64,000 bases of DNA, taken from assembly GCA_021739765.1 (NCBI GenBank), contig JAIPBD010000021.1, forward strand, positions 2,453 through 66,452, given 5' to 3'. Every line of letters begins with the position of its first letter. Positions within the stretch are counted from its first letter, which is position 1. The notes under the pieces are model-generated. The model was not told the origin of the DNA. It saw only the letters and a program-made list of their open reading frames with translations, and did no database searches. Source of the stretch: Melioribacteraceae bacterium (GTDB lineage Bacteria; Bacteroidota; Ignavibacteria; Ignavibacteriales; Melioribacteraceae). Positions 57,256 to 64,000 of this stretch are shown one piece after another. A program made the translations under genes and the position numbers.

Positions 57256-57846
57256 ATGAAGGCATTTGGATATTTAATTTTAATACTACTTGTTGGGTGT
57301 GGTTCATCAACAACTATTGGGCGACTTGACACTAAGCAAACTACTGATGTTAGTGGTCGATGGAATGATTCAGACTCCCGCCTAGTGGCTGAAGCGATGG
57401 TTAAGGATCTGATAAATAAGAATTGGCTTCGAGATTATGAATTAGAGAAAAATAAAAAACCTGTAGTGATAGTCGGTCGGATACGCAATCTTTCTTCGGA
57501 ACATATAGCAATGAATACATTCGTAAATGATATGGCTCGCGAGTTGATTAACGGAGGTAAGGTTGTGTTTGTTGCTGACAAAGAAGAAAGAAAAGAAATA
57601 CGAAATGAGAGGATGGAACAGCAAAGTTATTCATCCGTTGAGACTACAAAGGAATTGGCTGAAGAAACAGGTGCTGATTTTATTTTACAAGGCTCATTAA
57701 CCTCAATTACCGATGCGATAGAGGGGCAAGCTACTAAATATTATCAAGTTGATCTTGAGTTGATTAACATTGGAAATAATCAAAAAGTATGGATAGGAAG
57801 TCACAAAATAAAGAAAATGGTTGAAAGGAGTAGTTACAAATGGTAA
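57256..57846 (+). CDS. LpoB-like (COG3417) lipoprotein
   Basis: Lipobox LLVGCGS. The SGRWNDSD..AEAMV...KPVVIVGRIRN.S.EHI......ND....L...GK pattern is typical of the LpoB/YcfM family. Confidence 0.7.
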   Translation: MKAFGYLILILLVGCGSSTTIGRLDTKQTTDVSGRWNDSDSRLVAEAMVKDLINKNWLRDYELEKNKKPVVIVGRIRNLSSEHIAMNTFVNDMARELINGGKVVFVADKEERKEIRNERMEQQSYSSVETTKELAEETGADFILQGSLTSITDAIEGQATKYYQVDLELINIGNNQKVWIGSHKIKKMVERSSYKW

Positions 57847-59228
57847 ATGTAATACAGTTATCAACAAAAGGACTCTTTTTTATTTATTTAATTCAATTGT
57901 TTATTGGGTGTGCTAGTCTAAAAACGAATACAGAAAAATATCGAGAAATAGATAAACTTGTAGAATCTGAGAGATACTCTGCTGCAATTCATGAGATAGA
58001 AATGAAAAAAGACGATTATTATGATGACAAAGACATATTGCTTTATTATCTCGATATGGGAGTGCTTCACCATTATGCGGGAAACTACAAAGAAAGTAAT
58101 AAATATTTAGAGCGTGCAAATCAGTCTATTGAAGCTCTCTTTACACAAAGCATTTCCAAAGGTGCTTCCTCAGTGCTGCTCAACGAGAACGTTCTCGATT
58201 ATTCAGGTGAGGACTATGAAAATCTATATATAAATATATTTCGTGCCATGAATTATTATAAACTTAATGATATTGATGCTGCTTTAGTTGAGATACGGGC
58301 AATGCATGAAAAATTAGATGTCATAAATGATAATTACGCTGATCTAATTGATTCAATGAATAAATCCGATACCACTTCAATTGACTATTCTCTTCCCGAA
58401 CTTGAATTTAAGGACTCTGCTTTTGGCCGATATTTTTCATCCATTTTGTTTGAAAGGCTAGGTTTTGAAGACGATGCAAGAATTGACCTTGAGAAAGCCA
58501 TTGATTTGTGCAAGGAGCAAAAAGTGATCTATAATTTCCCAATACCATCATTCGAGTTTACAAGCGCGAAGATGAACAGCACCTGTATTGATTTAATAGT
58601 CTGTTTAGGAAGAGCTCCATTGAAGGAACCTAAAGAGTACTATATATCAACCACAAACAATTATTTAATAATTAAAGAAGTTAAAGGAAATAGCAGCGTA
58701 AAAGTTGAAGAAATATTTTGGCCAAAGATCAAACCCAATCTGAATTTTAAATTTGCCGTCCCAATATTAATTTCCCAAGGTAGCTCAGTTCATAAAATCA
58801 AAATTTTTGACAAAAATGAATTTCTGGGAGAACTTAAAAAATTCGAATCAATTAATAATATCGCAGAAGAAACCTTTGAACGTAAGAAGAAAATAATATA
58901 TCTAAAAGCCATTGTTAGGACTATAGTAAAAGGACTACTTGTTGAGGCAGCGAATAGAGAACTTGATAAACAAACGGGTGGAGGATTATTAGGTTCGCTT
59001 ACTCGAAGTATCTCATCGAAATTAATGAATTATACTGAAAATGCCGATCTCCGTACTTCGCGTTACTACCCCGGTGAAATTTGGGTGGGGAAGGTCTTGA
59101 TTCCACCTAAGAAACAAACATTGGAAATCAAATATTATAATACCTCGAATATTCAGATGGGTACAGATAGTGTTAATGTAAATACTATAGATAGAAATGA
59201 TCTAGTTATTCTTAATCATACATGGTAG
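57840..59228 (+). CDS. Lipoprotein with N-terminal TPR-like region (COG3014-like)
   Basis: Lipobox LFIGCAS. Helical repeats (YYLDMGVLHHYAGNYKESNKYLERA). Overlaps the upstream gene by 7 nt. Confidence 0.55.
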   Translation: MVNVIQLSTKGLFFIYLIQLFIGCASLKTNTEKYREIDKLVESERYSAAIHEIEMKKDDYYDDKDILLYYLDMGVLHHYAGNYKESNKYLERANQSIEALFTQSISKGASSVLLNENVLDYSGEDYENLYINIFRAMNYYKLNDIDAALVEIRAMHEKLDVINDNYADLIDSMNKSDTTSIDYSLPELEFKDSAFGRYFSSILFERLGFEDDARIDLEKAIDLCKEQKVIYNFPIPSFEFTSAKMNSTCIDLIVCLGRAPLKEPKEYYISTTNNYLIIKEVKGNSSVKVEEIFWPKIKPNLNFKFAVPILISQGSSVHKIKIFDKNEFLGELKKFESINNIAEETFERKKKIIYLKAIVRTIVKGLLVEAANRELDKQTGGGLLGSLTRSISSKLMNYTENADLRTSRYYPGEIWVGKVLIPPKKQTLEIKYYNTSNIQMGTDSVNVNTIDRNDLVILNHTW

Positions 59229-59232
59229 AATC

Positions 59233-62467: not shown

Positions 62468-62668
62468 ATGAAATTATTAGTGAAAACATCTGAGATTTAT
62501 AATGTCAATTATAAAGATAGTTACTCTTACAAAATAGTTGATTATGTCGGCATCGATGCCATTCCAAGCATATTAGTTGAAGGGAAATGGATTAAAGGAT
62601 ATTTAACTGAACAATTGCTTTCATACATAATTTTGAGTGAAATCAAAGAAAAACATGAAATAGACTAA
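62468..62668 (+). CDS. Hypothetical small protein
   Basis: 66-aa ORF in operon context only. Confidence 0.3.
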   Translation: MKLLVKTSEIYNVNYKDSYSYKIVDYVGIDAIPSILVEGKWIKGYLTEQLLSYIILSEIKEKHEID

Positions 62669-62670
62669 AT

Positions 62671-64000
62671 ATGATAAACTTCTTGAATATATTGCTCATC
62701 ATTTTATTTATAAATAATGTTCTCCTTGCGCAAAAAGATTATGAAAAATGGTTAACGAAGGATCGAACTCAGTTTGAAAAATATATGGAAGAACAAGATA
62801 AGAAATTCATTGAATTTCTTAATAAAGAATGGAAGCCATTCTTATTGAATGACGGTAATGTTTTGGATGAGAAACCCAAAATCAAGGCCCCTCCAATAAA
62901 AAAGAAGCAACAACTTCAAAAATCAAAGAAAACCATAAAACTGGAGAATATTAACAAAGATTCTGATGAAAAAGATAATCCAAATGATTTGTTGTCTATT
63001 CCTGTAAAAGTCAATTTACCCAAAAACAGTATAGAGGAAGCGTCTGATTTACCAAGAATAAAACCAGCTCAAACAACACTGATAACTCGCGAATTTAATT
63101 ATTTGAGTGAACTGATCAGAATAAAAGAAAATAATGATTTATGGCCAGAAATTAAACATCCGATAGATAAGCAAGTGATTGCAGAATTTTGGCAGTCAAT
63201 TAGTTCAAAAGATTATAAAACTGTTTTAGATTTATTAAATGCAGAAAAGGTGCAGAAGCATCTCAATGATTGGGGATATATTCAATTACTAAGAGAGTTA
63301 GCAAAAACGGTTTATCCTACCTCTCCTGACAAACAATACCTAGCAATATGGTTTTTAACAGTTAAGTCAGGGTATAAAACACAAATAGGATTTAAAGGCG
63401 ATAATTTAAGATTATTTCTAGTATCTGATAAAGATTTGTATGGTATTTCCTACATCAGAACAACATCATCCAACGAAAAAAAATACATAATTAATTTTGA
63501 TGATTTATATAAACATGAGGCAGGGGGGATTTCTACATATTCGGATGAATATCCTGAAAAGCTGCATTCTGTAGATTTAAGAATTACGGTCGAACCAAAA
63601 CTTACTGAGAATCGAGTAACTCAAAATTTGATATTTAATTATGAAGGTAAAACCTATACTTTTTCTCCGAAAATAAATAAAAATGTAGTAGAATATTATA
63701 AAACCTATCCTCATACAAACTATGATGTCTATTTTAATGCAAAAGTAGATATTGATTTACGAGAGACACTTTTAAAACCGTTTTCAGAAATTATTAAAGG
63801 GAAATCTGAGCATGAAGCGGTTAATATGATGCTACGTTTTGTTCAAACTGCCTTTCCATATAAGCTGGATAAAGATAATTTTGGACGAGAAAAAGTGTTA
63901 TTTCCTGAGGAAACCATAAATTATCGTTATTCGGACTGCGAAGACCGATCGATTCTTTTTGCATATATGGTGTCTAACTTAACTGAGTTGGATATTGTTG
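62671..64000 (+). CDS. Secreted protein with a C-terminal transglutaminase-like Cys-protease motif; continues past right edge
   Basis: Open frame from the ATG at 62671 to the window end, read manually with no stop found. Signal peptide MINFLNILLIILFINNVLLAQ. YSDCEDRSILFAYMV resembles the transglutaminase-core catalytic Cys motif. Absent from the ORF track because it has no stop in the window. Confidence 0.6.
   Translation, partial: MINFLNILLIILFINNVLLAQKDYEKWLTKDRTQFEKYMEEQDKKFIEFLNKEWKPFLLNDGNVLDEKPKIKAPPIKKKQQLQKSKKTIKLENINKDSDEKDNPNDLLSIPVKVNLPKNSIEEASDLPRIKPAQTTLITREFNYLSELIRIKENNDLWPEIKHPIDKQVIAEFWQSISSKDYKTVLDLLNAEKVQKHLNDWGYIQLLRELAKTVYPTSPDKQYLAIWFLTVKSGYKTQIGFKGDNLRLFLVSDKDLYGISYIRTTSSNEKKYIINFDDLYKHEAGGISTYSDEYPEKLHSVDLRITVEPKLTENRVTQNLIFNYEGKTYTFSPKINKNVVEYYKTYPHTNYDVYFNAKVDIDLRETLLKPFSEIIKGKSEHEAVNMMLRFVQTAFPYKLDKDNFGREKVLFPEETINYRYSDCEDRSILFAYMVSNLTELDIV

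Follow-up and report, generated by a model that had tools for sequence, protein, structure and literature searches.

Layout of the operon and its conserved core

We analyzed a 64,000-nucleotide (nt) stretch of contig JAIPBD010000021.1, called the window here, from a 4.54-Mb, 99.8%-complete genome; the closest relatives of the window genes are labeled Melioribacteraceae. Our subject is a run of genes for exported proteins, named g1 to g11, which begins with the gene of an LpoB-fold lipoprotein and lies divergent from the genes of a sensor kinase and a response regulator (Table 1). Between positions 57256 and 64000, we found nine open reading frames (ORFs), all on the + strand, with junctions of -7, +4, +18, -13, -4, -11, +71, and +2 nt, and these eight values bear out the original prediction of co-directional genes with overlaps or gaps of at most 72 nt. 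That prediction had also taken the series to end at 64000 with its ninth gene, and this part did not hold. In the remaining contig sequence (L002; window coordinate = L002 coordinate + 56547, so that positions above 64000 are extrapolated), g9 runs on to its true end at 64197, g10 overlaps g9 by 4 nt, and g11 follows after a gap of 148 nt, which makes 11 ORFs in all. A terminator scan placed a terminator-like hairpin after g11 (67482-67500), ∼3.5 kb beyond 64000, and predicted no terminator between the operon genes. As read from these features, the locus is a predicted envelope operon of 10 to 11 genes that reaches ∼3.3 kb past the window.

Lipoboxes were read in the translations of g1, g2, g5, g6, g7, g10, and g11, including all five (VGC, IGC, INC, FAC, and TSC) named beforehand for g1, g2, g5, g6, and g7, and signals of the signal peptidase I type were read in g3, g4, and g9. 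The accompanying claim that the other products have signal peptides stood for g3, g4, and g9 and failed for g8 (66 amino acids [aa]), which is signal-free. All credible operon products carry export signals, and most appear lipid-anchored.

We then scanned 80 loci from named genomes with the window proteins as queries (Ignavibacteriota, Cloacimonadota, Kryptoniota, Neomarinimicrobiota, Spirochaetota, Lentisphaerota, and records labeled Bacteroidota). The g1 gene adjoins g2 in 77 of these loci, the three exceptions being loci without the flank, and g3 adjoins g2 in 73 of them, while g4, g5, g7, g8, g9, g10, and the kinase gene were never found beside the trio in the 80 loci. Three independently fetched neighborhoods have only the LpoB, g2-like, and LPP20 genes in common. 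Since only g1 to g3 are shared between neighborhoods, the co-conserved unit is this trio and not the nine genes that had been proposed as a unit; the pairing of an LpoB-like with a COG3014-like gene, proposed at the same time as conserved, does extend over several phyla. Several other Melioribacteraceae carry the trio just downstream of polA, for example in L008 (4510-10431), where g1 and g2 overlap by 7 nt, as they do here, and where the trio is followed by genes for an ABC-2 permease, a cytidylyltransferase, and an NtrC-type regulator.

The g1 gene is single copy in the genome. Its product matches PF13036 over model positions 1 to 147 (E = 5.6e-34, 117.6 bits against a cutoff of 22.3), which confirms the LpoB assignment, and the g1 family profile reaches the structures of Escherichia coli and Salmonella LpoB (4q6l, E = 3.6e-6). 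Against TIGR02722, the NCBIfam LpoB equivalog, g1 scores 76 bits, under the cutoff of 110.55, and weak matches to FlgT_M were found in Pfam. Only ∼25 residues separate the lipid-anchored Cys15 from residue 40, where the Pfam domain begins, whereas the linker with which E. coli LpoB crosses the periplasm has roughly 55 residues. UB2H (PF14814), the domain of the penicillin-binding protein (PBP) PBP1B on which LpoB docks, had no match in the genome, while control genomes responded; the genome encodes a single class A PBP along with a single monofunctional transglycosylase.

The AlphaFold2 model of g2 (predicted local distance difference test score [pLDDT] of 88.1, predicted template modeling score of 0.87) comprises a tetratricopeptide repeat (TPR)-like domain (∼residues 30 to 226), a beta-sandwich, and a long helical hairpin, and a PDB structure search with this model returned TPR matches only, without a whole-chain analog. 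The earlier TPR call thus keeps its footing in the helical domain of the model (pLDDT 88) and loses it in Pfam, where TPR is below the cutoff. The g2 family profile aligns over the full length with a 473-aa lipoprotein of Aeromonas caviae (hhalign probability 98.65%, E = 4.6e-16, 388 columns), and the alignment contains the motifs NDxxLxYxxxDYE, VEIRR, and ENADxR. As NCBI and UniRef both name the Aeromonas protein "COG3014 family protein," this match confirms the COG3014-like label given to g2. The lipobox Cys is nearly invariant in the family, which counted 4149 cluster representatives (clusters at 50% identity) at E ≤ 1e-3 in a profile search of 1.84 billion representatives. Homologs (best, 42% identity) occur in Melioribacteraceae, Cloacimonadota, and Kryptonia, and a profile built from a more distant branch assigns that branch to Treponema and Spirochaetaceae; in the phylum sample, a g2 relative is present in 77 of 301 genomes and 36 of 144 genera. 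The named homologs are all "hypothetical" or "uncharacterized," and a literature search for "COG3014" brought up only an unrelated mention.

For g3, PF02169 gave E = 2.6e-9 and 37.8 bits against a cutoff of 25.9. The AlphaFold2 model (pLDDT 84.4) has an N-terminal LPP20 domain, a helical middle, and a C-terminal domain like those of LptE, PelC, and CsgG. Its best Foldseek match is Helicobacter pylori HP1454 (4kzs; E = 1.7e-9, 288 columns, TM scores of 0.42 and 0.52), and the next matches, of the C-terminal domain, are LptE, PelC, and CsgG (E = 4e-6 to 3e-3). At the sequence level, no similarity between g3 and HP1454 was detectable in the PDB chain search; the searches of g2, g3, g9, and g11 against PDB chains gave nothing useful, and the NCBIfam search assigned no family to g2 to g11. 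The g3 signal is of the signal peptidase I type (IFA before the cleavage site, Q after it) and is without a canonical lipobox, in which g3 resembles HP1454, described as "secreted" (PMC11756786).

Table 1. Genes and predicted elements of the operon and its upstream region
Feature	Position	Strand	Basis
NtrC-type response regulator (receiver, sigma-54 AAA+, and Fis-type helix-turn-helix), candidate operon activator	52880..54244	-	Pfam
Sensor histidine kinase, large periplasmic domain, divergent from operon	54245..56674	-	HisKA, HATPase_c
Distal TGTTG-N8-CAACA palindrome pair	56763-56780 and 56796-56813	.	Exact matches
56-nt element with terminator-like hairpin	56913..56968	+	Terminator scan; direct-repeat family D1
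Proximal palindrome pair, candidate activator binding sites	57083-57100 and 57115-57132	.	One mismatch each; repeat families D6 and D8
Sigma-54-type promoter TGGTAC-N5-TTGT, 33 nt 5' of g1 start codon	57209..57223	+	Motif search
g1, LpoB-fold lipoprotein, 196 aa, lipobox LVGC	57256..57846	+	PF13036
g2, COG3014-family lipoprotein, 462 aa, lipobox FIGC	57840..59228	+	AlphaFold2 model, hhalign
g3, HP1454-like exported protein, 316 aa	59233..60183	+	PF02169, AlphaFold2/Foldseek
g4, small exported protein, possible 8-stranded outer-membrane barrel, 195 aa	60202..60789	+	OMP_b-brl, subthreshold
g5, lipoprotein, 181 aa, lipobox LINC	60777..61322	+	No Pfam or NCBIfam match
g6, LPP20-like lipoprotein, 194 aa, lipobox LFAC	61319..61903	+	LPP20, subthreshold
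g7, lipoprotein, 167 aa, lipobox ITSC	61893..62396	+	No family match; none in related loci
g8, 66-aa ORF without signal peptide	62468..62668	+	No family match, no relatives
g9, exported transglutaminase-like cysteine enzyme, 508 aa	62671..64197 (extrapolated end)	+	PF04473
g10, lipoprotein, 178 aa, lipobox LISC	64194-64730 (extrapolated)	+	L002
g11, lipoprotein, 811 aa, lipobox LISC, two CarboxypepD_reg domains	64879-67314 (extrapolated)	+	L002

A second module and the remaining genes

The transglutaminase-like assignment of g9, made in the original prediction on a protein cut short by the window, passes PF04473 when the full-length protein is searched and only then (E = 4.8e-5, 23.3 bits against a cutoff of 20.5). 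Its predicted catalytic triad, Cys423, His450, and Asp477, is invariant in 12 homologs. Homologs of g9 occur in 18 of the 151 genomes of the family, where the gene is preceded by one or two genes for LPP20-like proteins, a g6 homolog included, and followed by that of a ∼260-aa protein matching the C-terminal domain of g11 (residues ∼610 to 793). No g1 or g2 genes were found within the 11.5 to 20 kb of DNA fetched around the g9 homologs. Judged by these neighborhoods, g6, g9, and the g11 C-terminal domain are a predicted second module, separate from the trio in other Melioribacteraceae.

Two LPP20-like proteins had been expected in the operon. This proved right for g3, whereas g6 stays below the cutoffs of both LPP20 (E = 0.022, 15.6 bits) and DUF6844 (E = 0.006); a g6 homolog in L102 reaches 21.7 bits against LPP20 (E = 2.7e-4; PF02169 cutoff, 25.9). 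Homologs of g6 precede g9-like genes in L098, L101, and L102 and are found directly 3' of g2 in five Melioribacteraceae/Ignavibacteriales loci (L027, L028, L032, L037, and L048). Because g6 bridges both modules in independent genomes, we argue that their joining here is functionally meaningful. In a quick tree, the window g2 has a very long branch and falls next to the subgroup of g2 proteins whose genes are followed by g6 (SH-like approximate likelihood ratio test, 93), a placement of low confidence, as long branches meet there.

One of the loci with the second module has a further neighbor: in L102 (2505-7886, genome G041), the LPP20 and transglutaminase-like genes lie directly downstream of the gene of a 1793-aa bacterial alpha-2-macroglobulin lipoprotein and are followed by genes for a 612-aa protein and then a PEGA-domain protein.

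The remaining operon positions are held by g4, g5, g7, g8, and g10, which have no detectable relatives beside either module; for g5, no homolog was found in the 80 related loci. The outer-membrane barrel proposed for g4 is unproven, since its match to OMP_b-brl (PF13505; E = 9.9e-5, 23.0 bits) is under the cutoff of 28.7, and g8 reads as a doubtful gene.

Candidate sigma-54 control and local composition

The regulator gene encodes Sigma54_activat (E = 1.1e-70), Response_reg (1.5e-28), and HTH_8 (5.6e-7) domains, with a GSFTGA loop in its translation, and the kinase gene encodes HisKA (4.2e-10) and HATPase_c (1.6e-17) domains. The earlier label of an FG-GAP sensor kinase is subthreshold, FG-GAP_3 reaching 21.5 bits for a cutoff of 26.9. 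The promoter-like element upstream of g1 is the sole perfect TGGYAC-N5-TTGY in the 64-kb window, and the genome has an rpoN gene. The 581-nt intergenic region between the kinase gene and g1 contains four of the window's five TGTTG-N8-CAACA matches, arranged as two pairs with a spacing of ∼33 nt, and the proximal palindromes lie 77 to 126 nt upstream of the -24 element. Genome-wide, we found five motif pairs spaced 20 to 60 nt apart, two of them in this intergenic region. As predicted from the sequence, the geometry of promoter and palindromes is textbook for a bacterial enhancer-binding protein, and the operon is probably transcribed from the sigma-54 promoter under the divergent kinase and NtrC-type regulator. 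The proposal of sigma-54 control by the adjacent regulator is in this way supported at the sequence level by the -24/-12 site, the palindromes, the activator, and rpoN.

We also considered whether the kinase and regulator genes are conserved together with the trio and rejected this, as the kinase has no relative in the 80 loci and the regulator matches in relatives belong to a different, housekeeping-like context downstream of polA. The trios located downstream of polA leave no room for such promoter and palindrome elements, so sigma-54 control appears to be particular to this lineage. A genome-wide search for a palindrome regulon returned no other convincing target. One candidate, C17:2240, was discarded as a single site with no promoter match, and another, C31:96025, as belonging to the locus of another activator. 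At the latter (C31:96025-96130), a TGGCAT-N5-TTGA element and a palindrome pair with a spacing of 31 nt (TGTCG…AACA and TGTTG…CGACA) directly follow another sigma-54 activator gene and precede RsbW-like/STAS-like genes, which suggests that there may be a family of related activators with similar half-sites.

Within the intergenic region, a weaker GG-N10 element (∼56863-56877) and then a terminator (56918-56943) come after the distal palindrome pair, and this stretch could serve autoregulation of the divergent kinase-regulator genes. A second histidine kinase gene converges on the operon end (L002 11004-11360, - strand, at the contig end); the C terminus of its product resembles that of the upstream kinase (…GTGMGLAIAKKILEDH…), of which it may be a paralog.

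The 56-nt element upstream of the operon has a second copy, 89% identical, just after g11 (L002 10928-10983, extrapolated 67475-67530), and blastn found only these two copies in the genome. The copies are 10,562 nt apart, with the upstream one 290 nt 5' of g1, and they bracket the promoter and the whole 11-gene operon. The repeat may have been left by a duplication or insertion from which the locus arose, and it would fit the origin of a composite operon by rearrangement or acquisition. In addition, the GC content of the kinase gene (0.325) and of the operon (0.327) compares with a genome mean of 0.368 (standard deviation [SD] of 0.013 over 10-kb windows), which puts the operon ∼3 SD under the mean, and ∼1% of the 10-kb windows are as low. 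The low-GC segment, from 54245 to ∼67314, may be an acquired island.

Characterized relatives and possible roles

The description of the operon as uncharacterized and with no assigned role was overstated, as relatives of its core have been studied in Campylobacter jejuni (PMC3100323) and H. pylori (PMC11394524, PMC11756786). The C. jejuni operon (Oakland et al. 2011, PMC3100323) encodes Cj0089, a 453-aa TPR lipoprotein reported as similar to Shewanella TPR proteins and to HP0018; Cj0090 (122 aa); and Cj0091 (207 aa), an outer-membrane protein that was reported as similar to HP1457 and has a domain named SpaP-like at that time. There, as predicted here, a ∼450-aa TPR lipoprotein and a ∼200-aa LpoB-type lipoprotein, both membrane-associated, are encoded in one operon under a dedicated transcription factor. 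The gene order is reversed here, with the LpoB-like gene first, the small middle lipoprotein of the YcfL/DUF1425 type is absent, and the third partner is an HP1454-like LPP20 protein; control is by sigma-54 and a two-component system as predicted here, in contrast to CmeR in C. jejuni. The locus of A. caviae (L089) encodes, in this order, the 473-aa COG3014 lipoprotein, DUF1425 (YcfL), LpoB (E = 3.3e-52), and a thiK-like kinase. Its order and sizes parallel cj0089-cj0091, and its COG3014 and LpoB proteins are homologous to g2 and g1. A PDB search with the Aeromonas YcfL-like protein retrieved the unnamed structure 3o0l only and gave no link to Cj0090.

In H. pylori, the HP0018 deletion mutant forms outer-membrane vesicles in chains and has an altered cell shape, and the protein coprecipitates with AmiA and MltD; HP1457 is described as an LpoB homolog and HP0018 as a Cj0089 homolog, their genes being syntenic in enterohepatic Helicobacter (PMC11394524). 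HP1454 and HP1456 (Lpp20) interact with the outer-membrane-associated FapH and FlgP, which are flagellar-sheath accessories, and deletion of hp1456 leaves the motor disks intact (PMC11756786). The g3 model matches HP1454 over almost its whole length, and the products of the lpp20 operon (HP1454, HP1456, and HP1457) and HP0018 are, like those of the trio, all exported envelope proteins; in contrast to the arrangement here, the H. pylori genes occupy two separate loci and their products contact flagellar-sheath accessories. From these parallels, we infer that the trio (module A) represents the same protein families as cj0089-cj0091 and as HP0018 with the lpp20 operon.

The FlgP, FlgT, and FlgO proteins of Vibrio and Campylobacter share with g3 and g6 the LPP20 fold, which is common to the disk-forming FlgP and FlgT (PMC11756786), together with weak FlgT_N/FlgT_M similarity and the character of outer-membrane-proximal lipoproteins. 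The genome analyzed here, unlike theirs, lacks flagellar genes, as the original prediction had noted for the locus: FHIPEP/FlhA, the export gate, had no match in the whole genome, and FlgI, the P-ring protein, had only a subthreshold match of 19.7 bits. With FlhA absent and FlgI subthreshold, the LPP20-type proteins cannot be flagellar accessories here.

On balance, we lean slightly toward the view that the operon encodes a regulated lipoprotein scaffold under the outer membrane that would tune the coupling between the cell wall and the outer membrane, and we place much less confidence in any specific biochemical step. The grounds for a scaffold are that the products are exported and mostly lipid-anchored, that the trio is tightly coupled, and that the Campylobacterota relatives are envelope proteins. 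We propose that the kinase would sense an envelope or external cue and switch on the whole set, in which module A (g1 to g3) is joined to module B (g6, g9, and g11) and the remaining positions go to lineage-specific lipoproteins and what may be a small barrel. The products would come together at the periplasmic side of the outer membrane, where the scaffold would contact peptidoglycan and modulate wall-remodeling enzymes and outer-membrane attachment, and the g9 enzyme may process or cross-link one of its components.

Several points weigh against this scaffold. In the Campylobacterota relatives, the phenotypes are mild and differ from one another (adhesion, vesiculation, and none reported for the hp1456 deletion), and they can be read in ways other than as a scaffold modulating hydrolases; the relation of g2 to Cj0089 and HP0018 is itself drawn through the Aeromonas bridge and the published operon description. 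Part of the operon may be functionally unrelated, given that g4, g5, g7, g8, and g10 are not conserved with the modules. As for regulation of the set as a whole, the -12 element is TTGT where the consensus is TTGC, and g11 might have a promoter of its own in the 148-nt gap that precedes it.

The core is a published gene set, and the locus does not define a new class of system. What is new here is the fusion of the trio with the LPP20/transglutaminase-like module, the dedicated sigma-54/two-component control, and the occurrence of the trio in a genome where neither the flagellar nor the PBP1B explanation can apply. The LpoB-fold/COG3014/LPP20 trio is among the more widespread Gram-negative envelope gene sets lacking a mechanism, and without flagella or a PBP1B-type partner it stands apart from the two functions to which its parts are commonly assigned. 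Its physical joining to a second module suggests partners and an enzymatic step, and the apparent inducible sigma-54 switch would give an experimental on/off handle for finding a phenotype.

Among the alternatives, the one that survives best, which we nonetheless consider unlikely, is a stand-alone nonflagellar ring, disk, or export pore located in or beneath the outer membrane, in which g3, g6, the LpoB/CsgG/PelC-like folds of g1 and of the g3 C-terminal domain, and the g4 barrel would oligomerize in a manner analogous to FlgP/FlgT disks or PelC/CsgG rings, possibly stabilized by g9. The Foldseek matches of the g3 C-terminal domain speak for such an assembly, and PelC is a dodecameric ring. 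The weak FlgT_M matches of g1, the LPP20 fold common to FlgP and FlgT, and the presence of a possible barrel and an enzyme in the same operon point the same way. Against it, the g4 barrel call is below the cutoff and g4 is not conserved with the triad, Pfam and NCBIfam reveal no polymer-synthesis or cargo gene in the operon, and the H. pylori motor disks did not depend on hp1456 (PMC11756786).

Alternatively, a low-GC island may have gathered unrelated genes for exported proteins behind one promoter, with cooperation confined to g1 to g3. The GC content, the unique 56-nt direct repeat bracketing the segment, the very long branch of g2, and the five genes without relatives beside either module would all fit such an accretion. 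We judge it unlikely as well: the junctions from g1 to g10 overlap or nearly abut throughout, relatives of g6 are linked elsewhere with g2 and, independently, with g9, and all credible products are exported.

We give little credence to a more specific version of the ring, in which the LPP20/HP1454-type and LpoB-fold proteins would build an inducible ring or disk lattice under the outer membrane, as a free-standing relative of the flagellar basal disk/H-ring, that would be covalently fixed by the transglutaminase-like enzyme (between subunits or to peptidoglycan) and deployed via the kinase and sigma-54. A canonical LpoB role, in which g1 would activate a class A PBP from the outer membrane and the other genes would be accessory to peptidoglycan synthesis, is likewise improbable because of the absence of UB2H, the subequivalog score, and the short tether, and g1, which shares with E. 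coli LpoB its globular fold family and lipoprotein anchor, is always paired with a COG3014 protein; what favors this role is the PF13036 score well over the cutoff, the profile match to E. coli LpoB structures, the single class A PBP in the genome, and the position of the Aeromonas COG3014 gene within a genuine ycfL-lpoB-thiK locus. To our knowledge, E. coli has no COG3014 protein.

The Aeromonas locus was reached by tblastn of PLSDB. The record concerned, NZ_AP026896.1 ("plasmid pKAM479_3"), is 4.94 Mb long, has 18 annotated features, and contains housekeeping loci, ycfL-lpoB-thiK included; it is evidently a chromosome labeled as a plasmid.

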